31,912 nt of DNA from Lentisphaeria bacterium (GTDB lineage: Bacteria; Verrucomicrobiota; Lentisphaeria; Oligosphaerales; Oligosphaeraceae): positions 1-31,912 of the forward strand of contig JBAXYW010000001.1 in assembly GCA_041670605.1 (NCBI GenBank), read 5' to 3'. Positions 1,254 through 31,700 of the stretch are shown in pieces. A model generated the notes under the pieces. That model was given only the letters and a program-made list of their open reading frames with translations. It did not search any database and was not told where the DNA came from. Both the position numbers and the translations under genes were made by a program. The number at the start of each line of letters is the position of its first letter. The first letter of the stretch is position 1.

Positions 1254-1410
1254 ATGAAACCGTCGAGAATTTGGCAATCCAGACAGTTTCATTGTTGATC
1301 TAAATATCGCGGGTGTCAAGCCTGCGGCCTGTTTATGCGAACCATTTTTTAAACGCATTACTCAGGGCGCAGGATTTATGCGCCCTGAAATTAGGTTAAC
1401 GGAGACTAAT

Positions 1411-4102: not shown

Positions 4103-4103
4103 C

Positions 4104-13628: not shown

Positions 13629-13642
13629 TACAAAGGTAAACC

Positions 13643-15349
13643 ATGCTCCAAAACAACCCCGAACTCAAAAGCAAGATCGACCAGCTCTGGAACAAATTCT
13701 GGAGCGGCGGCATCAGCAACCCGCTTACCGCCATCGAGCAAATCACTTATTTGCTATTCATGAAGCGGCTCGACGAACTGGACCATAAAAAACAGGCTGA
13801 CGCCGAATGGACGGGAGAGCCCTACACATCCAAATTTAAGGGTACATGGATTCCGACCGAATACCGGGCGCGGCGAGAAGAAAAAGATACGGATGCTGAA
13901 TGGTTGAAAAAGCTCGAAGATGAGCAGCGCTACGCCATCGATAAAAACACTCTGCGCTGGACTGAATTCAAACACATGCAGGCCGAAGAGATGCTGCAGC
14001 ACGTGCAAGGGAAGGTGTTCCCATTTCTCAAAGACCTTAACGGCGCCGAGTCCAACTTCACCCACCACATGAAAAACGCGGTGTTCATCATTCCCAAGCC
14101 AGCGTTGCTGGTGGAAGCGGTGAAGACCATCGACGAAATCTTCGCAGTGATGGAGAAGGATTCGCAGGAAAAAGGTCAGGCTTTTCAGGACATCCAGGGT
14201 GATGTCTATGAAATGCTGCTGTCGGAAATCGCTACCGCCGGAAAAAACGGCCAGTTCCGCACCCCTCGCCACATCATCAAACTGATGGCCGATCTTGTAC
14301 AACCGCAACTGGGCCATAAGATAGCCGATCCGGCATGCGGCTCAGGTGGTTTCTTGCTCGGTGCGTATCAGTACATCGTCACTCAGCTCGCCATCAAAGC
14401 AGGCACCAAAGACCTAGCTCCAGATGAAGATGGCTTTGTACGCACCTCGGTCGCCGCCGCGCTCACCGAAAATGCCCAAGCCATTCTGTCCGGTTCGCTT
14501 TGGGGTTACGACATCGACGGCACCATGGTGCGCCTGGGGTTGATGAACCTGATGATGCACGGCATCGACGAACCGCATATCGATTACAAGGACACGCTCA
14601 GCAAGAGCTTTGTCGAAGAGTCCGAATACGACATCGTGATGGCCAATCCGCCGTTTACCGGCAGCATCGACAAGGGCGACATCAACGAAAACCTGCAACT
14701 GGCCACTACCAAAACCGAGCTGCTGTTTGTTGAGAATATCTACCGCCTGCTAAAAATAGGCGGTACCGCTGGTGTGATTGTGCCGCAGGGGGTGCTGTTT
14801 GGTTCTGGCGGCGCCTTCAAAACCCTACGCCAGTTGCTGGTGGAGCGTTGCGACCTCAAGGCCGTCATCACCCTGCCCAGCGGCGTGTTCAAACCCTATG
14901 CCGGGGTCAGCACTGCCATTCTGTTGTTTACCAAGGTCTGGGGGCCGAAAGACAAAGTCACCCAGCCTGCCACCAAACACATCTGGTTTTACGAAATGGC
15001 CGCCGACGGCTATTCGCTGGACGACAAACGTAGCAAGCAGGAAGGCAATGGCGACCTGCAAGACATCATTACCAAATACCACGTCCGCAACTCGGCCACC
15101 GACACTGACCGCACGGCGAAATACTTCATGGTGCCGCGTACCGAGATCGCAGACGAAAAGAACAACTATGACCTTTCGCTGTCACGCTACAAAACCGATG
15201 TGTTCGAGGAAGTACACTACGACGCGCCGGGCGTGATTCTGGATCGGTTGATTCAGGCCGAGGTAGGCGATGTGGACGAGACGGGACTTGCCAAGGTGCA
15301 AAGCGGAATCGTGCGCGAGTTGTTGGAATTGAAGGGGATGGTGGGATGA
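13643..15349 (+). CDS. hsdM: Type I R-M methyltransferase subunit M
   Basis: GQFRTPRHII, DPACGSGGFL (motif I) and NPPF (motif IV, N6-adenine). Confidence 0.95.
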   Translation: MLQNNPELKSKIDQLWNKFWSGGISNPLTAIEQITYLLFMKRLDELDHKKQADAEWTGEPYTSKFKGTWIPTEYRARREEKDTDAEWLKKLEDEQRYAIDKNTLRWTEFKHMQAEEMLQHVQGKVFPFLKDLNGAESNFTHHMKNAVFIIPKPALLVEAVKTIDEIFAVMEKDSQEKGQAFQDIQGDVYEMLLSEIATAGKNGQFRTPRHIIKLMADLVQPQLGHKIADPACGSGGFLLGAYQYIVTQLAIKAGTKDLAPDEDGFVRTSVAAALTENAQAILSGSLWGYDIDGTMVRLGLMNLMMHGIDEPHIDYKDTLSKSFVEESEYDIVMANPPFTGSIDKGDINENLQLATTKTELLFVENIYRLLKIGGTAGVIVPQGVLFGSGGAFKTLRQLLVERCDLKAVITLPSGVFKPYAGVSTAILLFTKVWGPKDKVTQPATKHIWFYEMAADGYSLDDKRSKQEGNGDLQDIITKYHVRNSATDTDRTAKYFMVPRTEIADEKNNYDLSLSRYKTDVFEEVHYDAPGVILDRLIQAEVGDVDETGLAKVQSGIVRELLELKGMVG

Positions 15350-16890
15350 AAGTTAAATCCCTAAACGAAATTACAAACCCAAAGCAATGGAAGAACCTTC
15401 CAATCTCAAAGCTGAAAGATTCAGGGTTCCCTGTGTATGGGGCAAACGGAATTATTGGTTTTTTTGACGAATACAATCATGCGAATCCCACCATCGCTAT
15501 TACATGCCGAGGCGCAACGTGCGGAAATATTCACATCACTCGTGAAAATTCCTATATCACTTCAAATGCGATGGCGCTTGATGACCTCGACGAAAACGAG
15601 TGCGAGCTAAATTATCTAGCACAGTACCTTCGATATCGTGGCTTGAGTGATGTAACGACGGGCGCAGCGCAGCCGCAAATAACCAGAGCAAATTTAGAAA
15701 AAGTAACAATACCCCTACCGCCCCTCGACGACCAAATCCGCATTGCCCATCTTCTCGGCAAAGTGGAAGGGCTGATCGCCCGGCGCAAACAGCACCTGCA
15801 ACAACTCGACGACCTGCTCAAGAGCGTGTTTCTGGAGATGTTTGGCGACCCGGTGAGGAATGAGAAGGGGTGGGTCACCAAAACGCTCCCTCAACTTGTT
15901 CTTCCAGGAAAGAATTCCTTAAAGCGGGGGCCATTCGGGGGAGCTCTAAAGAAGGAAATCTTTGTTGAGACGGGCTATTTGGTTTATGAACAAAACCACG
16001 CCCTAAACAATGATTATTCATTCGCAAGGTACTTTGTAACAGAGGAAAAATATCAAGAGTTAATCGACTTCAAAGTCGTGCCTGGAGATGTATTGATTAG
16101 CTGTTCGGGCGTCTATTTGGGAAAGCTATCTATAGTCCCTGCAGATGCGAAGCCTGGGATCATCAATCAGGCGCTACTTAAGGTTTCGTTGGATCCTCGA
16201 AAGATTCGGCATAGGTTCTTTGTTCATGTCTTTGGGAGTCCGCAGTTCAAAGGAAAATACTTCCCCTCAAATCGTGGTGGGGCTATACCGAACCTGCCGC
16301 CAATGTCGGTAATGAAGGAAATCCCGTTTATTTACCCGCCACTTGAGTTACAGCAGGATTTCACGGACCTTTTCGAAAAGGTGGAGTGGCTCAAGTCTCA
16401 GTACCAGCAAAGCCTCACCGATCTGGAGTCACTTTACGGCGTAGTGAGCCAGCAGGCATTCAAGGGTGAGCTGGATTTGTCGCGCGTACCGCTACCGACC
16501 ATGCCGCCCGAAGGAGAACAACCTATGGCTATCGAGCTATCACCACCACAGACCGAAGAAATCGCCATCAATCTGCCCGATAATGAATTAATGTTGATCG
16601 CACTGGAGAATCCAGAGCAACGCCCAGCACTGCTCGGCCACTGGCTGGAGGCTTATCGCGGGCAGCTCGGCGACGCCCCCTTTTCCTTGGAGCGCTTCAT
16701 GGCTGCCGCGCAAACCCGGCTCTCTGAATTGCATCCGGACACTGACTTTGAGTTGGGTTCTGACGACTACGAGCACATCAAGACATGGGCATTTGAGGCA
16801 CTGGCCTCCGGCAAATTGATGCAAGTACTTGACGATGACGAGAACCTAATTAAATTGCGCAAGCGATCTGATCAATGGGGAAGTTGGTAA
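15346..16890 (+). CDS. hsdS: Type I R-M specificity subunit S, two TRDs plus a ~138-aa C-terminal extension
   Basis: TRD1 (PVYGANG...AQPQIT), conserved PLPPLDDQIRIA...FLEMFGDP, TRD2, then PPLELQQDF...AFKGEL ending at 16473, followed by extra sequence. ATGA overlap with hsdM. Confidence 0.92.
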   Translation: MKVKSLNEITNPKQWKNLPISKLKDSGFPVYGANGIIGFFDEYNHANPTIAITCRGATCGNIHITRENSYITSNAMALDDLDENECELNYLAQYLRYRGLSDVTTGAAQPQITRANLEKVTIPLPPLDDQIRIAHLLGKVEGLIARRKQHLQQLDDLLKSVFLEMFGDPVRNEKGWVTKTLPQLVLPGKNSLKRGPFGGALKKEIFVETGYLVYEQNHALNNDYSFARYFVTEEKYQELIDFKVVPGDVLISCSGVYLGKLSIVPADAKPGIINQALLKVSLDPRKIRHRFFVHVFGSPQFKGKYFPSNRGGAIPNLPPMSVMKEIPFIYPPLELQQDFTDLFEKVEWLKSQYQQSLTDLESLYGVVSQQAFKGELDLSRVPLPTMPPEGEQPMAIELSPPQTEEIAINLPDNELMLIALENPEQRPALLGHWLEAYRGQLGDAPFSLERFMAAAQTRLSELHPDTDFELGSDDYEHIKTWAFEALASGKLMQVLDDDENLIKLRKRSDQWGSW

Positions 16891-16893
16891 GCG

Positions 16894-18690
16894 ATGAAAC
16901 TGCTGCGCCTCAAGATTACCGACCCGGCAGGATTTCGCAGCCTTACCTGTGGTTTTGAGCATCACTTCCGCACCGAATGGTCGTTACAGGAAGAACTGAC
17001 CAAGCCCGAAGGCTTCGCCCCCTTCGTCTGCGCCGGACCCAATGGCAGTGGCAAATCCAATCTGCTTGAGGCCCTGGCGGCGATTTTCTTTCAGTTGGAA
17101 ATATTGCGCGTGCGGCGCAGTTTTCTGCCAGAGGTGTTGCAAAGCGATGAGCTCGATTATTCTCCCAAAGGTTTCGAGCTGGACTACCTGATCCAAGTGC
17201 CGCCCGAATACATCAGACCAGATGGACAGGTGTGGGCTAAAGTTGGCGTATGGAAGAATCCTGGAGAATCCGTTCGATTGAATTGGGAGAATCAAGGTGA
17301 TTTCGATACCGATATATACGAGGTCTTCAGGGCTGGCTTTGCGGATATTTTGTTACCCCAATACGTGTTGGGATACTCGTCAGGCGAGAACGAAATCCTG
17401 AGCTTGCCATTCTTCAAGCTGCGCTTCGTGCAGTTCGACGAGTACTGGAATGCTCTGACCCGGCAGTTGCCTTATCCGGGGCACCCGGAAACTCGGCTGG
17501 CCTATCTCGACAATGGTTTTAGCCAAGCCATCCTGTTGTGTAATCTGCTATTTCAGGACGCCGCCACACTGCAACCCTTTCGCGAGGATATCGGCATTGA
17601 GGCGCTGCAGGAGTTTCGCATCATCATCAAGCGCAGCATTGAGGTTTCAGTCGACGTCGCCGAAGGTTTTATGGCGGGCGACTATGTCGAGAAAGGATAT
17701 GTTCAGGACGACTACACTACCTCAAATCCAGCACTGAGAAAGGATAGTGAATCCGGTCGCTACACCATCAATCTGATGCAGCTGCTGGAAGCTAGTTCAA
17801 ACTCCGCAAAGAATTTCGATCCCTTGGTCACCCGCCTGAGGCGCTGCGCCACGCTGAGTTATGTGGACGACGCGAACGACACGCTGATTCTTGACTTTTG
17901 GGTCAATGAAGAAACAAAAAAGGCATTCCGGGCCAATTTTGAAGATGACCCACTGATGCTGTTCCAGGCTTTTCAGGTGTTGCTGACACTCAATCTGTAT
18001 TCCGTGAGTGATGCGCTCAAGTCCGACCTGTACCGTTCCACCAGCCACTACGCCAGTGAAACGGTGCCGACGCTGGCGTCTGACCAGCGCATCATGCGCT
18101 TCAAGTTCGTGCGTTTCAGCAAACAGGGTGTGACACAGCCGATGATGCTCAAAGAATTGTCGGACGGCGAGCACCAGTTGCTGCACAGCCTGGGCTTGTG
18201 CCTGTTGTTTCGAGAGACCAATAGTCTGTTCCTGCTGGACGAGCCAGAGACTCACTTCAACCCAGACTGGCGCGCCAACTTCATCACCCGCCTGCGCCAG
18301 TGCCTCCCCGGTACGGGGAATGTGGGGCAGGAAATGCTGATCACCACCCACACGCCGTTTTTGATTTCGGACAGCAAACCGGACAAGGTGCTGGTGTTTA
18401 AGAAGGACAAAAGTACCGGTGAAGTCAGCATCAGCCGCCCGGAATACAACACGCTGGGGGCTTCGATCAACAAGATCACCATGAGCACCTTCGGCAAGCG
18501 TGAGACCATCGGTGGGTATGCGCAGGAAATTCTAGACCGGCTACGTACCCGCTTCGATGCCGGCAACGAAGAGGCATCCGTATTGATTGAAGAAATCAAC
18601 CACGAACTTGGTGACTCGGTGGAAAAAATCCTGTTGATCAAGGCCATTCTTGACAAGGTTGAGGGTCCGCAATCGGAGGGCAAAGGCTGA
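16894..18690 (+). CDS. Restriction-system-associated ABC/AAA ATPase (PtuA-like)
   Basis: Walker A GPNGSGKS, signature LSDGE, Walker B LLDEPETH, H-loop TTHTP. Starts 3 bp after hsdS. Confidence 0.88.
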   Translation: MKLLRLKITDPAGFRSLTCGFEHHFRTEWSLQEELTKPEGFAPFVCAGPNGSGKSNLLEALAAIFFQLEILRVRRSFLPEVLQSDELDYSPKGFELDYLIQVPPEYIRPDGQVWAKVGVWKNPGESVRLNWENQGDFDTDIYEVFRAGFADILLPQYVLGYSSGENEILSLPFFKLRFVQFDEYWNALTRQLPYPGHPETRLAYLDNGFSQAILLCNLLFQDAATLQPFREDIGIEALQEFRIIIKRSIEVSVDVAEGFMAGDYVEKGYVQDDYTTSNPALRKDSESGRYTINLMQLLEASSNSAKNFDPLVTRLRRCATLSYVDDANDTLILDFWVNEETKKAFRANFEDDPLMLFQAFQVLLTLNLYSVSDALKSDLYRSTSHYASETVPTLASDQRIMRFKFVRFSKQGVTQPMMLKELSDGEHQLLHSLGLCLLFRETNSLFLLDEPETHFNPDWRANFITRLRQCLPGTGNVGQEMLITTHTPFLISDSKPDKVLVFKKDKSTGEVSISRPEYNTLGASINKITMSTFGKRETIGGYAQEILDRLRTRFDAGNEEASVLIEEINHELGDSVEKILLIKAILDKVEGPQSEGKG

Positions 18691-19775
18691 TGCTGTTTGC
18701 CTACACCTACGTTCCGCACAAGATGGAGAGGATGCAAGAGTTCATCGACTTTATCTTTTTTGAGGTGTGGTGCAGAGCACCAATCGGCCTAGTCTTCCAC
18801 CCTGATCTTTTCGATGGCAATCCCGACCTCAAAGCAGTTATGTCAGAGTTCGGGTTTTCTGCGCGAGCGGCAGAGCGCGGAAAGACGTTTTATAAAGACG
18901 TGAAAGCAATCTACGAACTTTTTGCGCCACTCTCGGCACAGGAAATTGATCAATTCAAGCAGTGGTACCTGGGCAACAACGACATTGAGAAGGTTTGTGC
19001 GAACGATCCAGCTTCACCGCTCCTGCGCTACGTCGATATTCCGGCAGCCCACCAAGCCTTGAGCGAGCAGCTCGCGTCGTTCTTCAAAGGGCTGTATTCA
19101 TCGCTACTCGACCTAGTCGCACTTCAAGAAAAAATAGGCAACATCGACGATCACTACAAGACCTTCGTGCAGACCAACAAAGCAGGCAAGTGCCCGTTCT
19201 GTGGAATCAGTGACCTGTTCAGTGAGTATCACAGCAAGCGTGAGGCTTACGATCATTACTTGCCCAAGGCGTTATACCCGTTTAACTCGATCAATTTCCG
19301 AAATCTTGTCCCGGCTTGCCACCACTGCAACAGCAGCTACAAGACCAGTAAGGACCCAGCCTATCCGCCAAAAGACCCGGCGCGGGCGGCTCAGCGCCGC
19401 GCAGTCTTTTATCCCTACACGGCAACGCCCTATGCCATCGAACTGCAAGTGACTTTGCAAAATTCGGATATCGAAAAATTGACGCCGGCGGACGTCAACC
19501 TGCATTTTGGCCCTGCCTCCCTCGACGAAAAAATCGACACTTGGAAGGACGTGTACGGCATTGAAGAGCGCTACAAAGCCAAGTTCTGCAGTAGCGATGC
19601 ACTAGACTGGTTGGAGCAGGTTCGCATCTTGGATAGAGATCACAGTGTCGCGCCTACAGCCTACCTCGTCAGCCTCGAAGAGCAAGCACAAAAGTCTCCC
19701 GTCGCGAATTGCAATTTCCTCAAGAAGCCGTTTCTCGAAGCCTGTAACCAGATTGGCATCTTCGACGCCATGTAA
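18690..19775 (+). CDS. HNH endonuclease (PtuB-like, with a long N-terminal domain)
   Basis: CPFCG...DHYLPK..YP....NFRNLVPACHHCN; TGATG coupling to the ATPase. Confidence 0.85.
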   Translation: MLFAYTYVPHKMERMQEFIDFIFFEVWCRAPIGLVFHPDLFDGNPDLKAVMSEFGFSARAAERGKTFYKDVKAIYELFAPLSAQEIDQFKQWYLGNNDIEKVCANDPASPLLRYVDIPAAHQALSEQLASFFKGLYSSLLDLVALQEKIGNIDDHYKTFVQTNKAGKCPFCGISDLFSEYHSKREAYDHYLPKALYPFNSINFRNLVPACHHCNSSYKTSKDPAYPPKDPARAAQRRAVFYPYTATPYAIELQVTLQNSDIEKLTPADVNLHFGPASLDEKIDTWKDVYGIEERYKAKFCSSDALDWLEQVRILDRDHSVAPTAYLVSLEEQAQKSPVANCNFLKKPFLEACNQIGIFDAM

Positions 19776-20054: not shown

Positions 20055-21041
20055 ATGGGACGTGAAGGCCAATGGATCGACCAGCCTGTCGATCAAGCAA
20101 TAAATATCGCAAATTGGAGAGGTGATGATGAATTTGAAATTTATCCAGAGGGTGCACGCGACAAATCACTTCTGATAAGCCCAAATCAATCCAGATATGA
20201 TTTTCTGATCCCTGGTCATCGGTATTTATTCAAGCATGCTTTTCAGAAGGGAAAGCGGTGCCATCCTGATCAATTCTGGGCGGAAATCGTCGCCTATCGA
20301 ATTGGTTGCATGTTGGATGTGCCGGTGCCACCCGCTTTTGTAGCATATAATAGTGACAATAATGTTTGCGGCGCCTTGATCGAATGGTTTTTGAATTACC
20401 CCGATCAGCCAGAAGAGAGGCGGGTTCCTGGCGGCGACATTATGGTGGACATGATCCCAGGTTATGACCGTAAAAAGGGTAAGGAGCATAACTTTGTAAC
20501 CATAGCTCGTTATTTTGCGGTTGTAGATAGAAATTTCTCATTCGAACCCAATTGGCTAATTTTCTGGTGCGATATGCTCTTGTTTGACGCCATAATCGGT
20601 AACACGGATCGCCATCAGGACAATTGGGAATTGTTATGGAACCAAGTACAAGCTAGGCACGTCAGAATGTCGCCTGTTTTTGATAATGGCACGAGTCTTG
20701 GTTATGAAATATTGGAGTCGAAAATGGACGATTTCTACCAACCAGATAAAATGGCGGCCTACATCAGAAGAGGCAGACACCACCTTCGCTGGCAGTCAAA
20801 AGACGAACTGCAATGCCGGCATGTGGACCTCCTACTGGACTTAGCAGTAAAATTTCCAATGTTGAACGGTCGTATCAGAGAAAAACTGGCTTTATTTGAT
20901 CCCGATCGATTACGTTCTATCATGGAAAATTGCAGGCAATATTCCGTGCCGGTTCCATTAACCCAAAAACGTGCTGATTTTATTTGCCATTTAGTTATAT
21001 CCAGATATAGAACCATTGAAGCAGAAGTAAACCAACTGTAA
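20055..21041 (+). CDS. HipA-like/CtkA-like Ser/Thr kinase
   Basis: YLFK, WAEIVAYRIG, FDAIIGNTDRHQDNW (catalytic loop) and SPVFDNGTSLG (Mg-binding motif). Confidence 0.88.
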   Translation: MGREGQWIDQPVDQAINIANWRGDDEFEIYPEGARDKSLLISPNQSRYDFLIPGHRYLFKHAFQKGKRCHPDQFWAEIVAYRIGCMLDVPVPPAFVAYNSDNNVCGALIEWFLNYPDQPEERRVPGGDIMVDMIPGYDRKKGKEHNFVTIARYFAVVDRNFSFEPNWLIFWCDMLLFDAIIGNTDRHQDNWELLWNQVQARHVRMSPVFDNGTSLGYEILESKMDDFYQPDKMAAYIRRGRHHLRWQSKDELQCRHVDLLLDLAVKFPMLNGRIREKLALFDPDRLRSIMENCRQYSVPVPLTQKRADFICHLVISRYRTIEAEVNQL

Positions 21042-21763
21042 TGAACCTGATACGCCATGTTCACCAACCAAGCCGCTTGTTATTGGTTTGGCAATCACCA
21101 GAAGGCAAATCTCGGAAAAGATTTGTTGTTGGTGAGATATGCCTGATCGATGGTAATTGTGTGTTTCGCTATTTACCCAATACCGATGACTTTAACAATG
21201 CTTGTGTCGAAGGATTTATGTGCTATCCGGCATTTCGCAAGCTAAATCAGGAATACAGCGAGAATGTTTTAGAGACATTTTTGCGTCGTATACCTCCCAG
21301 AAGACGTGGCGATTTTAATAAATATCTTGAGCAATGGCGACTGGTACCCGATGCTGTTATATCTGACTTCGCGTTGCTAGGCCACACAGGAGCAAAATTG
21401 CCTAACGATGGCTTCTCACTAATAAATCCATTTGATGGCATTAGTGCACCGTATGAGTTTTACATTGAAGTAGCTGGCTTTCGTTATCAGAAAACCATTT
21501 CTTTAAACGATATTACAGTTGGAATGCCTGTTGCTTTTGTTGTTGAGCCGGAAAATGAACATGATCATCAAGCGGTGAAAATCGAGGTTATGGGTAGAAA
21601 AATTGGCTATGTAAATAAAGTTCAGAGTCCTGCCTTCATTCGTTGGTTAGATAGCAATATAGTTACTGGCGTAATTGAACGTATTAATGGAACCGAAGAT
21701 CGGCCTTTGATTTATATCTATGGCTGCGTTAGTTCTAAACATGCTGATCGGATTGCGGCTTAA
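21041..21763 (+). CDS. HIRAN-domain protein (N-terminal HipA-N/HipS-like region plus C-terminal HIRAN)
   Basis: VAGFRY...EPENEHDHQAVKI...KIGYV (HIRAN signature); N-terminal YPAF...FLRRIPPRRRGDF; TAATG coupling to the kinase. Confidence 0.85.
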   Translation: MNLIRHVHQPSRLLLVWQSPEGKSRKRFVVGEICLIDGNCVFRYLPNTDDFNNACVEGFMCYPAFRKLNQEYSENVLETFLRRIPPRRRGDFNKYLEQWRLVPDAVISDFALLGHTGAKLPNDGFSLINPFDGISAPYEFYIEVAGFRYQKTISLNDITVGMPVAFVVEPENEHDHQAVKIEVMGRKIGYVNKVQSPAFIRWLDSNIVTGVIERINGTEDRPLIYIYGCVSSKHADRIAA

Positions 21764-22084
21764 TAAAACGGATAGGTGCGGGGTCTGATTTTGATAGAGG
21801 CACCCGCATTCTCATATCTGATTGTGTACTGGCAGCTACACATTTATAGGGGTCTGTGATCTTGTGCCGGGACTCACTAGCTCAAAACATGCATCAACTT
21901 CTTATGTAACAACAAAACATCTAGATAGCTTTGATTGGATAGAGCCTTCCGAAGTATGGGAAGTACTATCAAGTTGGCCGCGCGATACCTAGCAATATGC
22001 TTAAGCACCCATGCCCTCCAAACTTTCATTGCTCGAACCTTGCCGTTTAATATCAGGGTATGTTTCGATTTCCACCGCCCCGAA

Positions 22085-22250
22085 ATTTTTCACTATTAGT
22101 GGCACAAAATCCGGATTTTTTCATTAATTGTGTCAAAAGTGGGTATGATGGCTGACATAAATAATGAAAAATCGCTTTAAAATCAATGGACCATTTTTCA
22201 CTAATTCTGTCACCCAACAACTTGGAAGCCTGACACAGATATTGAAAAAT
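22085..22250. repeat. Five imperfect copies of a 20-bp motif TGACAnAAwTArTGAAAAAT
   Basis: 22085-22104 (rev, TGCCACTAATAGTGAAAAAT), 22116-22135 (rev, TGACACAATTAATGAAAAAA), 22153-22172 (fwd, TGACATAAATAATGAAAAAT), 22193-22212 (rev, TGACAGAATTAGTGAAAAAT), 22231-22250 (fwd, TGACACAGATATTGAAAAAT). Confidence 0.85.
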
Positions 22251-22459
22251 CCAGTGCTGCTAAATGTGTTCTTTTTCCATGGGGATAGCACAGCAAATTA
22301 CAAAGCCAAGTGATAGCTCGTGAAGGCTACTCAATGGATTATGCGGATTTTCTGGCTTTGTCTCTAAGGCTTAGGAAATAATGGCGTTTGAATACCTGCT
22401 TCTCTTTAGTTAGTGCAAGCGTGATTCAACAATATGATTTTGATCTAGTGGTTATATGA

Positions 22460-23464
22460 ATGGCCTATGAAAAACCTTGGAAAAGTTACGAAGACCAGTT
22501 GAATCAGTTGATTCAAAGAAGATTGGTCGTTACTCATAGAACTAAAGCTTTAGAATATCTCGAGCGGATTGGCTACTACCGCTTAAGTGGTTACTGGTTT
22601 CCCTTTCGTGAACGCAGTGGAACATGCTGTCCGCTAATCGCACCCATTGGCAGAAAGAAATTTAAACGTGGTGATACTGATCGGTTCGTGTTGGATACGT
22701 TTAAGGAGGGAGCCAGTTTTCAAAATGCCGTCAATTTATATGTGTTTGATAAGAAGCTGCGTTTGCTGACTATGGATGCGTTGGAGCGTATCGAGATTGG
22801 CTTACGGGTTGATATTTCGCATTCGCTCGGTAAAAAAGATTCATTCGCCTATCTGAAACCCGAGTTATTATTTGACGGTTTTGCGAAGAAACTCGATGAA
22901 AAAACGGGCTTAACAGAACATCACGAATGGCTGAGCAAACAAGCGGCGTTGATTTCCCGGTCAAAAGAGGAGTTTATCAAGCACAATAAATCCAAATATG
23001 GCTTTCCTTTGCCTATCTGGGTAGTCTGCGAAATCTGGGATTTCGGGACTATGTCTACTTTATTTGCTGGAATGATGGAAGTCGACCAAGATGCAATCGC
23101 TAAAAAATATGGGGTGAGTAACGGCCGTGTTTTTGCGTCTTGGTTGCGTAGCTTGAATTATCTGCGCAATGTATGTGCCCATCACAGTCGACTTTGGAAT
23201 CACAATATTGTTGATCAGCCCAAATTATCTCATTTAGGTGAAGTGACATGGATTGATCCATTCCATGGCAATGCCCCTCATAGTCTCGCCCGTCCTTTTT
23301 TATTGCTCTGCATCGCCAAGCACCTGCTGAGTATCATCAATCCATGCTCTGAATGGGGAAAGCGGCTGAAGTTGTTGCTTTTAGAGTTTCCCGATTTACA
23401 ACATTTGGGTCTGAACCTAGCTGGTATGGGTGTTATAGACGGTTGGGAACAGTGGGACTGGTGA
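22460..23464 (+). CDS. Abi family (Abi_2, AbiD/AbiF-like) HEPN RNase
   Basis: LERIGYYRLSGY, LY.FDKKLR...LERIEIGLR, P.W.V.E.WDFG, and the HEPN motif LRNVCAHHSRLWN. Confidence 0.9.
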   Translation: MAYEKPWKSYEDQLNQLIQRRLVVTHRTKALEYLERIGYYRLSGYWFPFRERSGTCCPLIAPIGRKKFKRGDTDRFVLDTFKEGASFQNAVNLYVFDKKLRLLTMDALERIEIGLRVDISHSLGKKDSFAYLKPELLFDGFAKKLDEKTGLTEHHEWLSKQAALISRSKEEFIKHNKSKYGFPLPIWVVCEIWDFGTMSTLFAGMMEVDQDAIAKKYGVSNGRVFASWLRSLNYLRNVCAHHSRLWNHNIVDQPKLSHLGEVTWIDPFHGNAPHSLARPFLLLCIAKHLLSIINPCSEWGKRLKLLLLEFPDLQHLGLNLAGMGVIDGWEQWDW

Positions 23465-23489
23465 TATGGAATACAAAACGGCAGGCAAT

Positions 23490-23550
23490 AAAAAACCCCT
23501 AGGCGGAGTAGCCGCCGAAGCAGCTAAACCGGAAGGGGCCGTGTTGGCGG
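23490..23550. ncRNA. Candidate structured small RNA downstream of abi (possible type III antitoxin)
   Basis: A6-CCCCT(23496-23500)...AGGGG(23534-23538) outer stem enclosing a GGCGG-agtag-CCGCC hairpin. On the minus strand it ends in stem+U6, with TTGACA (23581-23576)-N17-AAGAAT upstream. Confidence 0.45.
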
Positions 23551-23641
23551 GCATTCTTAATTAAACTTGGCCAATTGTCAAATATAACAATGAGATGAAC
23601 CGCTCATAATATCGATAAAATTTGGAAATAGCAATGCCTTA

Positions 23642-23689
23642 ACACTATATGTAGTGATTTTTAAAAATTTACATCACTATATAGAGAAA
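23642..23689. promoter_or_regulatory. Tandem NrdR-box-like sites
   Basis: ACACTATATGTAGTGA (23642-23657; 14/16 to acaCwAtATaTwGtgt) and TCACTATATAGAGAAA (23674-23689; 11/16), 32 bp apart start to start. Confidence 0.45.
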
Positions 23690-23928
23690 TACAGTTATCT
23701 CTAACTAGTTATCAAAATGAAGAATGAATGCCAACGCACACTATTTGGAATATTTGTCTTCGCCGCTGTTCGCAAACGCATCGGGGGCGAAATTCGCCAA
23801 AACAAGTTAAAACGTGCTTTTGTTAGCAAGGGACAAATACAATTCGAAGGTGTTAGCACTATTAAATTATAAAAGACAGCAAGGTCGCGTAGGCATCACA
23901 ACCTAAGCATGCCATTCAGGACATACAA

Positions 23929-26061
23929 ATGAGCTCAACAACCAATTTCCAGCAACTCGCCAATTTTATATGGTCGGTTGCTGATTTGCTACGAGGGCCT
24001 TATCGCCCACCACAGTACGAGCGCGTCATGCTGCCGCTGACTGTTTTGCGTCGCTTTGATGCTGTCCTTGCGCCGACCAAAGAAGCGGTTTTGCAAAGAT
24101 TTGATTCCTTGAAAGACAAAGATCGGCAATTGGTCGATCGGGTGCTCAACGAGCTGGCTAAGGATGAGGACGGTAAACCACTAGGGTTTCATAATCACAG
24201 CCAACTCGATTTCTACAAACTGAAGGGTGATCCGGATAACATTGGCCGACATCTCACCGACTATATCAACGGCTTTTCTGAAAACATCCGCAAGATCTTC
24301 GAGCGTTTTGAGTTCGAGAAAGAGATTGAAAAGCTGGAAGAGGCCAACCGCCTATACCAAGTGGTTGCTCAGTTTGCTGAGATGGACTTGCATCCTAAGC
24401 ACGTAGACAACATCACCATGGGGTTGGTGTTCGAGGATTTGATCAGGCGGTTCAACGAGGCGGCTAACGAAACAGCCGGTGATCATTTCACTCCGCGTGA
24501 GGTGATCCGGTTGATGGTCAACCTGTTGCTTGAACCAGACACACAAGTGCTCACACAGGAAGGCGTTATCGCCACGATTTGTGACCCTGCTTGCGGCACC
24601 GGTGGCATGCTGGCTGAAGCGCAAAATTGGATTCGTGCCCATAACGAACAGGCCACGGTTAAGGTCTATGGGCAAGACTATAATCCGCGCTCTTATGCCG
24701 TCGCCGCATCCGACCTGTTGATCAAGGGTCATCGCGATAGCCGCATCGAATACGGCAATACCCTGACCAACGATCAATTCCCGGATATGTGGTTCGACTA
24801 TTTGCTGGCCAACCCACCTTTTGGCGTGGACTGGAAAGGCGAGAAAAAAGAGATCGATCGCTGGCCGGATTTCTGCGGTTACAAAGGTAAGCTGCCGCGT
24901 ATCAACGACGGTGCGCTGCTGTTTTTGATACACATGATCGATAAATTCGCTGATTACGAACCGGGGAATAAAGATTTACCGGGTTCCCGCGCCTCCATCG
25001 TTTTTAACGGCTCTCCCCTCTTCACCGGTGGCGCCGGCAGCGGCGAAAGCGAAATACGCCGCTGGATCATCGAAAACGACTGGCTGGAAGCCATCGTCGC
25101 TCTGCCTGAACAGATGTTCTACAACACCGGCATCGGCACCTTCGTCTGGGTACTTAGTAACCGCAAGGAACAACATCGCAAAGGCAAGATACAACTGATC
25201 GACGCCCGCGAGCGCTGGACGCCGATGAAACGCAGCCTGGGCAACAAACGCCGCTATCTGGACGAAGCTGCCATTCATGAAATCACCCGCGAGCACGGCG
25301 CGATGACCCAATCTAATACCAGTAAGGTGTTCGACAATGCCGATTTTGGCTACCGGCGAGTGATTATCCAGCGCCCGTTACGTTTGCGTTTTCAACTGAC
25401 TCAAGAAGCCAAGGAACGCTATCTCGATGCCTGCCCGGAACTTTACAATGCGCTGGTCGCCGTGGAAGACAAACTTGGCCAGGAGGCTTATGACGATTGG
25501 AACAGCGTTTGGGAGCAAGCGCAGGACATTATCAAAGCCTTGCCGAACGACATAGAAGGCTGGGCCAAAGGCGCCAAAGGCACAGCTCAGAAAAAGTTGT
25601 TTCGTGACGCATTCACTGAGGTCGACCCCGAGGCCAAGCCGGTCGTTGCCAAACTGCACAAAGCCGATGCACCGGATACGGTGGCCTTGTTTCCCGGCCA
25701 GACTTTGCAGGAATTGCAATCCAATGTGCTGCATAGCTTGCTGGGCCAGTATGAGGCTGGCAAAGGTAAGTTTTACGAGTACGAAGCCGATCTGGCTCTG
25801 AAGGATTTTGAAAACATTCCGCTCAAAGAAGCTGTTATCAGCTACGTCGAAGGCGAAGTCTTGCCCTATGTTCGTGATGCTTGGATCGATCGCGAAGCCC
25901 TGGACGAACAGGATGGCGGTATCGGTACGGTGGGTTATGAAATCAACTTCAATGGAGAATTCCCGAAAGATAAGATTCAACGCTCTCTCCAAGAAATCGA
26001 TGCCGACTTAATCATGGTCGAAAGGCAAATTAATGAATTCTTGCGGAGGGCTTCACTGTGA
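23929..26061 (+). CDS. hsdM: Type I R-M methyltransferase subunit M (long form)
   Basis: FIWSVADLLRG, GDHFTPREVI, DPACGTGGML, NPPF, and C-terminal VGYEINF. Confidence 0.95.
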   Translation: MSSTTNFQQLANFIWSVADLLRGPYRPPQYERVMLPLTVLRRFDAVLAPTKEAVLQRFDSLKDKDRQLVDRVLNELAKDEDGKPLGFHNHSQLDFYKLKGDPDNIGRHLTDYINGFSENIRKIFERFEFEKEIEKLEEANRLYQVVAQFAEMDLHPKHVDNITMGLVFEDLIRRFNEAANETAGDHFTPREVIRLMVNLLLEPDTQVLTQEGVIATICDPACGTGGMLAEAQNWIRAHNEQATVKVYGQDYNPRSYAVAASDLLIKGHRDSRIEYGNTLTNDQFPDMWFDYLLANPPFGVDWKGEKKEIDRWPDFCGYKGKLPRINDGALLFLIHMIDKFADYEPGNKDLPGSRASIVFNGSPLFTGGAGSGESEIRRWIIENDWLEAIVALPEQMFYNTGIGTFVWVLSNRKEQHRKGKIQLIDARERWTPMKRSLGNKRRYLDEAAIHEITREHGAMTQSNTSKVFDNADFGYRRVIIQRPLRLRFQLTQEAKERYLDACPELYNALVAVEDKLGQEAYDDWNSVWEQAQDIIKALPNDIEGWAKGAKGTAQKKLFRDAFTEVDPEAKPVVAKLHKADAPDTVALFPGQTLQELQSNVLHSLLGQYEAGKGKFYEYEADLALKDFENIPLKEAVISYVEGEVLPYVRDAWIDREALDEQDGGIGTVGYEINFNGEFPKDKIQRSLQEIDADLIMVERQINEFLRRASL

Positions 26062-26633
26062 AGTACCAAATGACACGTGTTAAATACATTTGCCGACTCG
26101 GCTACGGTGACTCTCTTCCAAAAGATGAAGGCAGTGATGGTGATATTCCAGTGTTTGGCTCTAATGGACAATACACCACTACAGCAACACGAAATACTGA
26201 AGTACCGGCAATAGTTCTGGGCAGAAAAGGTTCCTATGGCAAGGTCAATTGGGCACCGAATGGATGCTTTGCATCAGATACCACATTCTTCATTGATAGC
26301 AGACTTACCTCAGAAAATTTGCGGTGGCTATATTGGGCTCTTCAAATTCTCAGGTTAGACGAAGGTTCCCAAGAAGCAGCAGTTCCAGGGCTGAACAGGG
26401 AAACCGTTTATGAGCAGCGCTTGCCTATTCCATCAGACATAAATCAGAAACTGATCGCCAACTATTTGGATCGAGAAATTGCGCGCATTGATTCAGCTCT
26501 TGATCTTGCCGGAAGCCGGTCAGCCATCAACTTCAAGGAAGGGTCGTTGTTAGCACTGCTCTTCGAGCGCCGTTCTGCGCTTATTACTGCCGCTGTCACT
26601 GGCCAGATTCCCATGGAGGAGATGGCAGGATGA
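26058..26633 (+). CDS. hsdS: Half-size type I specificity subunit (single TRD, 191 aa)
   Basis: One TRD (GDSLP...PVFGSNG...GRKGSYG...AVPGLN), then P....QKLIANYLDREIARID...ERRSALITAAVTGQI. GTGA and ATGA overlaps on both sides. Confidence 0.85.
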   Translation: MKYQMTRVKYICRLGYGDSLPKDEGSDGDIPVFGSNGQYTTTATRNTEVPAIVLGRKGSYGKVNWAPNGCFASDTTFFIDSRLTSENLRWLYWALQILRLDEGSQEAAVPGLNRETVYEQRLPIPSDINQKLIANYLDREIARIDSALDLAGSRSAINFKEGSLLALLFERRSALITAAVTGQIPMEEMAG

Positions 26634-28045
26634 AACTGAAAAGTTTAGGGCTGACAAATTTTCGGGGCTTTGATCGGCTGGATATAGATTTTGACGACCG
26701 GATGACTGTGATTGCAGGTGTCAATGGGGTTGGTAAATCAACAATCCTTCAAGCCATCGCAACGGCGTACTCCCACACCTTGCCGGAGTTTACTGTTTCG
26801 CGTGAGAAACCGTTGCCAATTCTTAACACAGACATCCAGCAAGGCAAATCCTCCTGCATCATCCAGATGGAAAGTACCGACTTGTCGGCAGCAAAGTTAA
26901 TCACTTTTCTTTCCAAGGAAAGCCTTAATCACAACGAAAAGCTTTCTCTTGAACACCAACAATCCCTAATGAAAAAGGAATTGCCTCTTCTTGAAAAAGG
27001 GTCGCCCGCTTACAAAAACCTGGATAATGAAATTACCTGGATCGACAAACGACTGGAGGGAAATTTCGAGAGTCGTTTAAACTGGCTATTTACCGATAAG
27101 CATGAATCAGAAGCGCAGCTGAAGCGGCACTGGAAGAACAGCCCAACTCAACCGCTTGTCATTTATTACTCGACAAACCGTTTGCTGTCGAGGTTGCCCC
27201 CAACACTTAAGAGTGAACTACCTTTCAAGCAGGCGGCTGCATTCGCAAAATCCCTGACACAGCTGGAAATATCACTCAACGAGTTCGCTAAATGGCACCG
27301 TGCCATGAATTCGCCTCGCGTAATTAGACAAGACAGTCAAGATGTTTCACGAATCCTGAATTTTCTTCAAGAGGCGATTACTGGCCTCATGCCCCAGATC
27401 AAAGAATTTTGGCTCCATGAGGGCCCCCCTCTTCGCTACTCGGTCATGAAAGACGCGACAATAGATGAGCAGGTGAACAACGGGAAAACAGGAAAGCAGC
27501 TGTTTTTTGAACAATTATCCGACGGAGAGCGTGGCTTGATTGCTCTGGTATTTGACCTTACTCGCCGCCTTGCCATTGCCAACCCGGACAGTGATAACCC
27601 CATTGCCGAAGGCGTGGCGCTGGTGTTGATCGACGAGGTCGAGTTGCACCTTCACCCCAAATGGCAGCGCGATGTACTTCCACGTTTGCGGGATATTTTC
27701 AAGGGCTGCCAGTTTGTTGTTACTACTCATTCGCCTCAGGTTATTGGTGAAGTTGAGGCGAAGTGTGTGCGTTTTTTAGAATACGTTGATGGCAAGGTTA
27801 GTGTCACCATTCCAACAGAAGCTTACGGTATCGATTCGAATCGCATCCTGCAGGAGTTCATGGGGGCTCCGGTGCGCAACCGGCAGGTGGACGGTCAATT
27901 GAAAGCTCTCTTCGATCTAATCGACCAAGAGCGTTTCGACGATGCTCGAGCAGCGATTGCGGATCTCGAAAGCAAGCTAGGTGAAGAGGAACCCGAACTC
28001 ACCCGTGCTAATTCGCTGATCCGCTTTCTGGAGGGGACCGAGTAG
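26630..28045 (+). CDS. ABC/AAA ATPase, PtuA (Septu)-like
   Basis: Walker A GVNGVGKS, LSDGE, LIDEVELHLHPKWQ, TTHSP, and a PtuA-type C-terminus GIDSNRIL...EPELTRA. Confidence 0.9.
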   Translation: MKLKSLGLTNFRGFDRLDIDFDDRMTVIAGVNGVGKSTILQAIATAYSHTLPEFTVSREKPLPILNTDIQQGKSSCIIQMESTDLSAAKLITFLSKESLNHNEKLSLEHQQSLMKKELPLLEKGSPAYKNLDNEITWIDKRLEGNFESRLNWLFTDKHESEAQLKRHWKNSPTQPLVIYYSTNRLLSRLPPTLKSELPFKQAAAFAKSLTQLEISLNEFAKWHRAMNSPRVIRQDSQDVSRILNFLQEAITGLMPQIKEFWLHEGPPLRYSVMKDATIDEQVNNGKTGKQLFFEQLSDGERGLIALVFDLTRRLAIANPDSDNPIAEGVALVLIDEVELHLHPKWQRDVLPRLRDIFKGCQFVVTTHSPQVIGEVEAKCVRFLEYVDGKVSVTIPTEAYGIDSNRILQEFMGAPVRNRQVDGQLKALFDLIDQERFDDARAAIADLESKLGEEEPELTRANSLIRFLEGTE

Positions 28046-28714
28046 ATGCGGACAATCTGTAAGGGCAACGAACCATCCTGTTTGACAAAACATCGGCAGC
28101 AACCACATTCGGATTACGATAACTACACCAATGAGATAGACGCCAATACTGGCAAGAAGATACCGAACACAGGTAAGGATGCCCTGCGACAGGCATTGGT
28201 GATGGAACAACGTGGGTTGTGTTGTTATTGTCAGTCCAGAATCCATCCGAATGAGGATAAAATGAAAATTGAGCACTGGCAGAGTCAGACTGGCTTTCCC
28301 CATCGCCAATTGGATTATAGCAACTTGCTGGGCGCGTGCCTTGGCGGTATAGGTCGCCCTAAGAAAGATCAGCATTGCGATACTCGGAAAGGCGATTCCG
28401 TCCTTTGTTTCAGCGTCAGTGACCCAGCCCACCCCATTGAACGACAAATCAAGTTCTTGGGTGATGGAAGTATTGCTTCTGGGGGTGCTGCGATCAACTC
28501 GGCCTTGAACGATGTGCTCAACCTCAACTCGCCACGCCTCGTGAGTAATCGCAAGGCAGTGCTCGACGCGTTCAAGCAACGACTGGGAAGGGGGAACCTT
28601 AATGCCGCGCAAGAGCTCAGGAAATGGGATGGTTCCCAAGCAGGTGATCTCCCTGAGTTTGCGCAGGTAATGGTGTTCTGGTTGGAAAAACGAATCGTAA
28701 GGCAAGCTCCATGA
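28046..28714 (+). CDS. HNH endonuclease, PtuB/TIGR02646-like
   Basis: LRQAL..EQRGLCCYCQ.RI...KIEHW..Q...LDYSNLLGAC...HCDTRKG. Confidence 0.88.
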   Translation: MRTICKGNEPSCLTKHRQQPHSDYDNYTNEIDANTGKKIPNTGKDALRQALVMEQRGLCCYCQSRIHPNEDKMKIEHWQSQTGFPHRQLDYSNLLGACLGGIGRPKKDQHCDTRKGDSVLCFSVSDPAHPIERQIKFLGDGSIASGGAAINSALNDVLNLNSPRLVSNRKAVLDAFKQRLGRGNLNAAQELRKWDGSQAGDLPEFAQVMVFWLEKRIVRQAP

Positions 28715-31700
28715 AGTCTACCTCCGAAGCAGCCTTCGAAACCGCCATTGAGTCAGCACTATTGGCCGATGGCTATCAACCGCTTCTATCCGGCTACTTC
28801 GACCGCGAGCGGGCCATTTTCCCTGAAGCGGCGCTGGATTTTATCCGCGAAACTCAAGCCAAGACCTGGGAGAAGCTGGAAGCGCTTCACGGTGACGAAA
28901 CCGGCGAACGGGTTTTGCAAGCCTTGTGCAAATGGCTGGATACCCATGGGGTTTTGTCCACCCTGCGCCATGGTTTCAAGTGCTTCGGCAAGACACTGCG
29001 TATCGCTTTTTTCCGCCCGGCGCACAGCCTTAATCCGGAACTGGAGACACGCTATAAAGCTAACCTCTTGGGCCTGACCCGGCAACTGTACTTCAGCCCG
29101 AAAAGTCAAAAATCGCTGGATGTGGTGTTGTCGGTCAACGGTATTCCGGTGGTAACGCTGGAGTTGAAAAACCCACTATCCGGCCAAACGGTGGCCAACG
29201 CCATTCATCAATATCGCCACGACCGCGACCCGCGCGAACTGATCTTTCAGTTTACCAAACGCACACTGGTACATTTTTCGGCGGATACCGAAGAAGCTCA
29301 TATGACAACTCGCTTGGCCGGAACCAGCACGCACTTTCTGCCTTTCAACAGAGGCAACCAGGGCGGCGCGGGCAACGAGCCAGACAAGGAAGGCCGTAAC
29401 TACAAAACAGCGTACTTATGGGAAGAGGTGCTGTCCCGTGACAGTTTGCTCGATCTGCTGGCACGTTTTCTTCATCTAAATATTGAGGAAAAAATGTCGG
29501 AGGATGGCAAAAAAATCCGTAAGGAAAGCATGATCTTTCCTCGCTATCACCAATTGCAAGCCGTGCGGCAAATGGTTAATTCGGCAGTGCGTGAGGGGGT
29601 TGGTCATAACTATTTAGTCGAGCATTCTGCCGGTAGCGGAAAGAGTAACACCATTGCCTGGCTGGCCCATCGATTGTCCAGTTTGCATAGTGCAACGGAC
29701 GAACGCATTTTTGACAGTGTTATCGTCATCACCGACCGGGTGGTACTTGATAGGCAATTGCAAAACACAATTTATCAATTCGATCATCGGCAAGGTGTCG
29801 TGCAAAAAATCGATGAAGATTCCCGGCAATTAGCGGAAGCGCTTGAATCCGCCGTGCCGATTATCATCACCACCTTACAGAAGTTTCCGTTTGTTTCCGG
29901 GCAGCTGGCAAAGTTGAACGAAGAGTGTGGCGAGACCGGTAGCCACTTACCCACACGACACTATGCGGTCATTATCGACGAGGCGCACAGTTCGCAATCC
30001 GGTGAAACTGCCACGGAACTTAAAGGGGTGCTTGGCGGAGCCGAACTGCGCCGTAAGGCTCAGGAACTGGCAAAAGAGGATGGTGAGGGTGAGTTGGAAC
30101 GGCTCTATCGTGCAATGGCTAAGCGCGGCCAGCAAGCCAATATGAGTTTTTTCGCTTTTACCGCTACGCCAAAGCATAAAACCCTGAAAATCTTTGGCCG
30201 AAATGGCGAACCGTTTCATCGTTATACGATGCGCCAAGCGATTGAGGAAGGGTTCATTGAAGATGTGTTGCGCAATTATGTTACCTACAAAACCTACTAT
30301 AAGCTGATCAAAAAAGCGGAAGATGATCCTAATGTAGAGCGCCAAAAAGCAGCCAAGGCGCTGGCTCGGTTCATGCGGCTGCACCCGCACAACATTGGGC
30401 AGAAGACGGAAGTGATCGTTGAACACTTTCAACACTTCACCCGGCACAAGATTGGTGGCCATGCCAAGGCTATGTTGGTAACCGGTTCGCGTCTGGAGGC
30501 AGTGCGTTATAAACAGGAGTTTGATCGTTATATCAAGGAAAAAGGCTATTCCATTAAGAGTTTGGTGGCATTTTCAGGTACTGTCGAAGATGACAAGTGT
30601 CCGGAAAAGACCTATACCGAAGTCGAAATGAACGATGGGCTAAAGGAAAAAGAGTTGCCGGATACCTTCGCGAAGCCGGACTTCCGGGTATTGTTGGTTG
30701 CTGAAAAATATCAGACGGGTTTTGATCAGCCACTGCTGCACACAATGTATGTGGATAAACGGCTTGCCGGTATCCAGGCCGTGCAAACCCTTTCTCGCCT
30801 CAATCGTACTCATCCGTTAAAGGACGATACATTTGTTTTGGATTTCGTTAACGACCCTGCCGAAATACAAGAGGCATTTCGCCAATATTACGAAGGGTCG
30901 GTAATGGGCGAAGACGTCGATCCTGACCGGCTCTATGAGGTAAAAGCAGAGCTTGATGCTTCATCGATTTATCTTCAAGAAGAAGTCGATGCGTTTGCCA
31001 AGGTGTTTTTTGCGCCTAAACGCCGCCAGAGTCCATCCGATCATAAAACGATGAATGCGATTTTGGATCAGGCTGTTGCCCGATTTACCGATTTGCAAAA
31101 ATCTGAAAATGAAGCAGCTGAACTTTGGCGTGGCAAAATTCAGGCATTTAGAAATCTGTATAGTTTTTTAAGCCAGGTCATTCCTTATCAGGACAGTGAC
31201 CTTGAAAAACTATTTACCTATTTACGTCATCTGGCGTTGAAGTTGCCGAAGCGAAAAACTGGAGCCGGTTACCAATTCGATGAAGAAATCGACCTGGAAT
31301 ACTATCGCTTACAAAAGATTAGTGAAGGATCTATTAGCCTCAATGAAGGGTATGCCAAACCGCTCGCTGGTCCACGAGAAGTTGGATCAGGCATGGTCAG
31401 AGAGGAACAGGTTTCGCTTTCCAGGCTTATTGATATTATCAACCAGCGCTTCGGCGGCGATTTAAACGAGGCCGATCAGTTGTTTTTCGACCAGATTACC
31501 GAGGCTGCCAGCCAGAATGAATCGTTGCGAAAAGCAGCTGAAGTGAATTCGCTGGATAAATTTCAGCTGGTATTCCGACAAGTGCTTGAGTCCTTATTTA
31601 TCGAGCGAATAGAACTGAACGAGGACTTGTTTACCGATTACATGAGTAAGCCGGATTTACGGGAGCTTGTCTCCAAATGGCTAGGAAGCCAGGTTTATGA

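Follow-up and report, generated by a model that had tools for sequence, protein, structure and literature searches.

What holds an AbiF-family RNase in check when no gene for a protein antitoxin lies beside it? The question is raised by the abi gene of a Lentisphaeria bacterium (contig JBAXYW010000001.1, assembly GCA_041670605.1) and by a hairpin element that lies just past its stop codon. The window analysed here, 31,912 nucleotides (nt) in length, is the whole 31.9-kb contig of a metagenome-assembled genome. AbiF/Abi_2 is among the most abundant families of defence genes and has been proposed as an ancestor of Cas13; RNA partners have so far been characterised for the AbiF proteins of Bacillota and Bacteroidota only, and upstream of the gene only. 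An initial annotation of this DNA, made from its letters, had described abi as a HEPN RNase with an adjacent structured RNA and as a candidate type III toxin–antitoxin system. The comparative data point to a candidate partner, a predicted minus-strand RNA gene of about 56 nt that is convergent with abi and that a covariance model finds beside 62 of 62 homologous genes.

The abi gene and the element behind it

The gene and its catalytic motif occupy the following positions.

22460..23464, plus strand: abi gene, AbiF/AbiD-family (Pfam Abi_2) HEPN RNase of 334 aa, putative toxin (profile matches, motif)
23165..23182, plus strand: HEPN catalytic motif R-x4-H, here RNVCAH, residues 236–241 (translation)
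23462-23464, plus strand: stop codon of abi

The Abi protein matches Pfam Abi_2 (PF07751, E = 9e-56) over positions 1–184 of the 184 in the profile, and the PADLOC AbiD model with E = 1e-62. Residues R236, N237, C239, A240, H241 and H242 are unchanged across 27 homologues. A profile of the family, with the window protein as its first row, aligns with PDB 8VZ6_A at E = 2.5e-44, from residue 3 to 330 of the Abi family and from 7 to 296 of 8VZ6_A; the entry 8VZ6 is the structure of a Prevotellaceae AbiF (PbAbiF) in complex with its own noncoding RNA. Because the Abi_2 and AbiD matches, the intact RNVCAH motif and the full-length alignment with 8VZ6_A coincide, the window protein is, judged by its sequence, a true, full-length AbiF homologue, and both the family assignment and the intact R-x4-H motif of the initial annotation are borne out. 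Protein searches return more than 3400 homologues, the best of them from Methylococcales methanotrophs.

The absence of an adjacent protein antitoxin gene, also claimed at the outset, agrees with the gene order in close homologues, where the abi start overlaps the stop of hsdS and the small open reading frames (ORFs) called downstream overlie the RNA. The features of this RNA in the window are listed below.

23490..23546, minus strand: predicted small RNA gene of about 56 nt, 5'-CAACACGG, three-tier hairpin with UUCG loop and U6 (fold, model R1, covariation, strand test)
23540-23534 with 23500-23494, minus strand: RNA stem P1
23531-23529 with 23506-23504, minus strand: RNA stem P2
23526-23520 with 23515-23509, minus strand: RNA stem P3, capped by UUCG at 23519-23516
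23495-23490, minus strand: U6 tail of the small RNA (A6 on the plus strand)
23553..23581, minus strand: sigma-70-type promoter of the small RNA, TTGACA-N17-AAGAAT (promoter scan)
23581-23576, minus strand: −35 box TTGACA, followed by a spacer of 17 nt
23558-23553, minus strand: −10 box AAGAAT, with the predicted start 7–8 nt further downstream, at CAACACGG

The nested stem was found where it had been described: the A6 run, which is the U6 end of the minus strand, starts 25 nt past the abi stop, and the hairpin spans 23494–23540. The predicted folding energy is −26.9 kcal/mol for the minus strand (z = −2.4, with the UUCG tetraloop) and −23.6 kcal/mol for the plus strand (z = −1.2). The minus-strand promoter predicted earlier also reappeared, as the top-scoring match of the region (10 of 12 positions). 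Taken as single-sequence statistics, these values for the hairpin and the promoter are modest. It is the conservation in 62 loci, the covariation and a promoter fixed in position that make the element more than a chance structure.

Among 32 distinct loci, only two boxes are conserved upstream of CAACACGG, a −35 TTGAC and a −10 TAnAAT, which lie at a fixed distance and are separated by a spacer that drifts; the −10 box ends about 6 nt ahead of CAACACGG. The promoter and the hairpin–U6 terminator therefore delimit a predicted transcription unit of about 56 nt, from 23546/23545 to about 23490.

Conservation, strand and the two gene layouts

The first sign of conservation is that the roughly 120 nt past the abi stop are about 80% identical in relatives whose Abi proteins share only 60–80% (BLAST, alignment). 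In the alignment, the invariant blocks GGCAATAAAAAACCCCT and GGGCCGTGTT flank a variable middle, and a search with a simple pattern placed the element 3' of abi in 37 loci. A covariance model, R1, was built from 32 distinct copies of the RNA and scores the window element at 77.8 bits (E = 7e-18). It matches all 62 homologous loci with at least 49% protein identity and with downstream DNA present, in every case on the strand opposite abi and just past the stop. R1 also matches plasmids of Sinorhizobium meliloti, Rhizobium, Methylobacter and Methylomonas, in which the site is without annotation; E. coli genomes gave partial matches at chance level only.

The alignment of the 32 sequences in the minus sense has 82% of its cells paired, and 11 of the 20 pairs have double changes. 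Covariation scores 0.268, compared with 0.179 for shuffled alignments, none of which scored as high in 500 trials, and it falls to 0.05–0.10 when the partners are slid. Compensatory change among homologues, which the initial annotation had named as a check, is thus present, as is the structure itself beside the homologues.

The fold is assigned to the minus strand because G·U pairs are possible there only, A·C cells being those that would form G·U on the plus strand. Overall, 57 G·U cells were counted against 18 A·C cells, and in the four well-supported variable pairs the ratio is 45 to 2. With RNAalifold the minus strand scores −15.1 and the plus strand −7.8, and the loops, read as RNA, are UUCG, CUCG or UCCG. 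A plus-strand RNA element or a structure in the 3' untranslated region (UTR) of abi is ruled out by the G·U and A·C counts together with the alifold energies. On this comparative evidence, the element is a conserved RNA gene of the minus strand.

Other identities of the element were considered and rejected. A genomic repeat, such as a repetitive extragenic palindrome (REP) or a miniature inverted-repeat transposable element (MITE), is ruled out, since the element is single-copy in its own 4.2-Mb assembly and does not occur in 350 further genomes from its class. The hairpin shape suggested an integron attC-like site, for which a reading of the sequence shows no core sites.

A small protein beginning GNKKPL...GAVL was the remaining candidate. 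The reading frame concerned is given here for completeness.

23466..23564, plus strand: spurious ORF of 32 codons that overlies the RNA gene and does not belong to the system (frame and start not kept)

In other assemblies, gene callers place ORFs of 72–94 aa over the homologous site (e.g., L025:4999-5283 and L027:1041-1271). The distance between the two invariant flanks, which ranges from 53 to 62 nt, shifts by 1–2 nt, and the third codon positions of the ORF over the RNA are invariant. The protein reading is ruled out by the start and frame that are not kept, by indels that are not multiples of 3 and by the invariant wobble positions. Since start and frame are unconserved, the ORFs of 72–94 aa in public annotations of the RNA site are probably spurious, that is, artefacts of annotation.

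Abi homologues of 35–47% identity have a related RNA, composed of 5'-CAAYAYGR, a 7-bp GC-rich P1, CUCU, a capped hairpin (P2), AC, P1' and a U-rich tail. Many loci have it downstream of abi and on the other strand, behind a TTGACA-N17-TAnnnT promoter; at least 11 loci, among them L015, L090, L091, L093, L099–L101 and L103–L105, have it upstream of abi and on the strand of the gene. A joint alignment that takes both layouts in the RNA sense has 92% of its cells in pairs; double changes occur in 9 of the 12 pairs, and the covariation is 0.548 against 0.178. The model built from this alignment, R2, recovers the distant RNAs and also weakly matches the window element at the same spot (20.6 bits). 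R1 and R2 together find an RNA beside nearly every homologue. The RNA of locus L089 is an intermediate form, and the RNA subtype follows the clade of the Abi protein.

Because the linkage to abi survives a change of position and strand and the subtype tracks the protein clade, the RNA behaves as a discrete trans-acting partner. The two layouts, as read from the alignments, argue for such a partner rather than for an element of the messenger RNA. If this holds, a large Gram-negative clade (more than 3400 relatives, including those of Pseudomonas, Sinorhizobium and methanotrophs) gains a candidate partner RNA with defined ends, structure and promoter. The invertibility of the RNA gene and its ability to move downstream would also explain how the module lives inside type I restriction–modification (R-M) operons.

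Several variants of the arrangement were seen. At L054, one abi gene is accompanied by two tandem RNA genes that share a strand but are not identical, one of R1 type and one of R2 type (2899-2970 and 3022-3081). L052, L067 and L074 likewise have two tandem RNAs, and in L051 and L058 the second copy is further off. In L082:1986-2039, L084:1063-1116, L086:3970-4028 and L088:3952-4005, the 3' tail of a convergent RNA overlaps the abi stop by a few bases, 3' to 3'. Plasmid 1 of Aromatoleum aromaticum EbN1 carries an orphan RNA (72 bits, L110:3994-4064) beside VapBC and other small toxin–antitoxin genes, with no abi detected; it may be the remnant of a lost toxin gene.

Known AbiF–RNA systems and the control of the RNase

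AbiF is a reported ancestor of Cas13 (PMC12737573). Its noncoding RNAs bind and block the HEPN site, in a toxin logic similar to that of type III systems (PMC12373285; PMC13064643; PMC12737573), and the published ones, RCd22 and AbiFr, lie upstream of the gene on the same strand and carry the Rfam abiF motif (PMC12373285, PMC13064643). The C. difficile pair AbiFCd–RCd22 is an AbiF–RNA toxin–antitoxin pair (PMC12373285); the pair PbAbiF–AbiFr comes from Zilberzwige-Tal et al. (Cell 2025), as far as that work is recounted in PMC12737573, PMC13064643 and PMC12373285.

With these systems the window locus shares the protein family (homology to 8VZ6_A, Abi_2, the HEPN Rx4H motif) and a small structured RNA with a GC-rich stem, its own terminator and tight linkage to the gene. 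An upstream, same-strand RNA is shared too, but in distant relatives of the window Abi only. The differences concern layout, topology and hosts. The known RNA lies upstream on the same strand with its terminator ahead of the toxin, whereas that of the window is downstream, on the opposite strand and under its own promoter. Two abiF motifs followed by a terminator are replaced by one three-tier hairpin that doubles as the terminator. The known hosts are Bacillota and Bacteroidota, and those of the window type are Proteobacteria and Verrucomicrobia.

The Rfam abiF motif (RF03085, consensus CCCGCC-A-AGC-CUCUCA..GCU-CAAAUC-GGCGGG) is also a short Abi_2-linked hairpin RNA, and it too has a CUCU stretch and an outer stem rich in GC. 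In RF03085, a 3-bp inner stem leads to the terminal loop that holds the CUCU, and CAAAUC forms a 3' bulge, whereas the pyrimidine stretch of the window family stands between P1 and P2; the invariant CAAYAYG leader of the latter is without counterpart in RF03085. Rfam gave nothing relevant in the window at the gathering score, nor in 22000–24100 at E up to 10, and the abiF model has no match anywhere in the genome of the window. As a positive control, the AbiF locus of a C. difficile phage (L112) gave two tandem upstream abiF matches, of 26.6 and 19.5 bits. The suggestion in the initial annotation that the Rfam abiF models be tried therefore ended without a match for the window RNA, whereas the control was matched twice. 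On 20 distant loci Rfam returned transfer RNAs (tRNAs) only, and L113, a gut phage contig, is no closer to PbAbiF than the family of the window is. The RNA is absent from the Rfam catalogue. In summary, Abi belongs among the AbiF proteins and has a linked structured RNA, which differs from those of the known AbiF systems in family, strand and position.

The label of a type III toxin–antitoxin candidate is supported, with corrections. The conserved linked RNA was found; the Rfam abiF motif and a repeat array of the ToxIN type were not. If the function holds, the locus shares with the classic type III systems (ToxIN, CptIN, TenpIN, AbiQ) an RNase neutralised by a cis-encoded RNA that is made in excess through a terminator or a strong promoter. 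Their toxins have the ToxN/AbiQ fold, to which the HEPN toxin of the window is unrelated, and their tandem repeat array, processed by the toxin, is replaced by a single copy in the window and by two different copies in some relatives. Nor does the locus resemble a type I system, in which the messenger of a small membrane-peptide toxin is overlapped by an antisense RNA: Abi is a HEPN protein of 334 aa, and the RNA ends 25 nt past its stop.

In the reading that we favour and regard as reasonably probable, a small RNA made from a strong promoter would bind the AbiF RNase directly and so keep it inactive, and the toxin would be freed once the RNA is lost or titrated upon infection. The abi gene would supply the HEPN RNase; the convergent gene, read from 23546 to 23490 with its own near-consensus promoter and its own hairpin–U6 terminator, would supply an abundant RNA of about 56 nt. 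This RNA would bind the AbiF dimer and block the HEPN site, like AbiFr in PbAbiF and RCd22 in C. difficile. Phage infection would cut the supply or the stability of the RNA, or titrate it, and the freed RNase would cleave cellular and phage RNA and abort the infection. The module should also fit into plus-strand operons (hsdM-hsdS-abi-RNA-hsdR) and leave them unbroken, because the plus strand reads an A-run and a mismatched hairpin, with no U-run, and so would not terminate transcription. As regards the RNA of about 55–60 nt predicted earlier as the partner of AbiF, comparison supports it: the element is conserved, structured and assigned to a strand, has a promoter of its own and is inherited together with abi in either layout.

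A number of points weigh against this reading. The hairpin with U6 is equally a plain intrinsic terminator. A convergent RNA is perfectly complementary to any read-through transcript of abi, so an antisense effect is possible. The RNA is unmatched by Rfam abiF and has a different topology, so that homology to the characterised antitoxin RNA is no more than a possibility. Many close relatives stand in type I R-M operons, where control by R-M, as for PrrC, could supplement or replace control by the RNA. In addition, no public RNA run containing the locus turned up, which is no evidence either way.

The alternative that survives best, although an unlikely one, is cis-antisense control. The minus-strand RNA, or its transcription, would act on the plus-strand transcript through pairing with the abi 3' UTR or the abi–hsdR intergenic region, or through collision, and would set the expression of abi or of downstream genes with no binding to the protein. 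The genes are indeed convergent and close, the RNA tail reaches over the abi stop in some distant loci, and in close relatives the element sits between abi and hsdR within a plus-strand operon. RNA antitoxins that overlap at the 3' end are known from Bacillus type I systems. The upstream, same-strand RNAs of the same family are, however, antisense to nothing in their 11 loci, and the solo copies in phages, described below, have no abi transcript to pair with. Pure pairing, moreover, needs neither invariant single-stranded flanks nor a conserved G·U fold nor tetraloops.

Control of the PrrC kind, with the type I R-M complex as the main restraint on Abi, which would fire when phage anti-restriction proteins attack that complex, and with the RNA as an accessory such as an insulator, appears unlikely. 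PrrC/EcoprrI is the precedent for a latent nuclease guarded by R-M. In the closest homologues of abi (about 80% identity; Methylobacter, Methylovulum and metagenomes), the order is hsdM-hsdS-abi-RNA-hsdR, with overlapping stop and start codons, so that abi holds the very slot of PrrC/EcoprrI and RloC in hsdM-hsdS-X-hsdR. A crude screen of 108 loci shows type I R-M genes next to abi in at least 28 of them. The window abi adjoins a type I R-M operon, too, but outside it: abi stands 465 nt upstream of hsdM and not between hsdS and hsdR. By the same screen, most loci lack an R-M neighbour and yet have the RNA, as in Rhizobium SU303, where the neighbour of abi is a TIR-domain gene. The window Abi differs from PrrC and RloC in having no ABC-ATPase or anticodon-nuclease domain and in being accompanied by a dedicated RNA gene, which is found outside R-M operons as well. 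Finally, control by R-M and control by the RNA are mutually compatible.

It is quite unlikely that the RNA is a cofactor, guide or sensor for the activity or targeting of Abi, in the manner of CRISPR RNA and Cas13, or a mimic of a sensed phage RNA. The reported Cas13 ancestry (PMC12737573), the RNAs of the same family in phages and the statement in a FEMS review that the upstream RNA region of AbiF is essential for its antiphage effect (PMC13064643) would fit such a role. The RNA has no variable spacer-like segment, its variable part being a paired stem, and the characterised AbiF RNAs are inhibitors (PMC12373285).

That there is no RNA gene at all, and that the site is an ordinary bidirectional terminator, a leftover or the start of the small protein gene rejected above, is very improbable in spite of the terminator-like shape and the ORFs called in relatives, given the invariant sequence outside the stem (CAACACGG, UUUUUUAUUGCC), the position-fixed promoter, the plus strand without a U-run, the lack of any minus-strand gene needing termination in the window or in operon-embedded relatives, and the coding evidence already described.

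Phage copies and genomic surroundings

The pattern AAAAAACCCC-N25-50-GGCCGTGTT was found in 50 viral contigs, against 8 for the reversed control pattern. R1 matches 45 of the 50 pattern-bearing contigs, of which one only has an abi gene. Both the UGCU bulge and CCCCUNUC, family features to which the search pattern does not extend, are retained in the phage copies, and in many of them a TAGAAT −10 box stands at the expected distance. Near 7 of the 8 copies checked are phage genes: terminase, primase-helicase, DNA helicase, integrase with tail fibre, or exonuclease. One copy begins 2 nt past a tRNA-Thr. The copies are among L115–L164 (e.g., L163:2296-2362, L128:5643-5713 and L115:1241-1304).

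Phage escape from ToxIN through a pseudo-antitoxin RNA is a precedent that the solo copies of the window family parallel. The solo phage RNAs may plausibly be decoy antitoxins, and they point to counter-defence by RNA decoys. More tentatively, the RNAs could form one uncatalogued superfamily (5'-CAAYAYG leader, GC-rich P1, pyrimidine bulge, capped hairpin, U-tail) that would be the obligate partner of the main proteobacterial and verrucomicrobial AbiF clade. Its gene would flip between upstream/sense and downstream/antisense positions, and the promoter-driven or tRNA-linked solo copies of phages would be decoys that disarm AbiF. If this were true, the solo phage RNAs would represent an RNA-based form of anti-defence.

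The remaining features of the contig, which consists of a Tn7-like element followed by defence genes, are as follows.

1378-7590: Tn7-like module with a TnsA-like protein, TnsB (rve/Mu C-terminal domains), a TniB ATPase and two TniQ proteins, one with a helix-turn-helix domain
10830-19775 and 23929-31722: two operons for type I R-M systems, both of which contain an inserted ATPase of the ABC/AAA_21 type and an inserted protein (X) that has no annotation
20055-21763: HipA-like kinase (under the Pfam cut-off) and, in translational coupling with it, a HIRAN-domain protein, immediately upstream of the abi region

The defence genes of the window, which also include the abi–RNA module and a Schlafen/AlbA_2 ATPase, may be cargo of the Tn7-like element. 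The two R-M operons have the orders hsdR-hsdM-hsdS-ATPase-X and hsdM-halfS-ATPase-X-hsdR, and their ATPase and X inserts take the slot that abi holds in its closest relatives.

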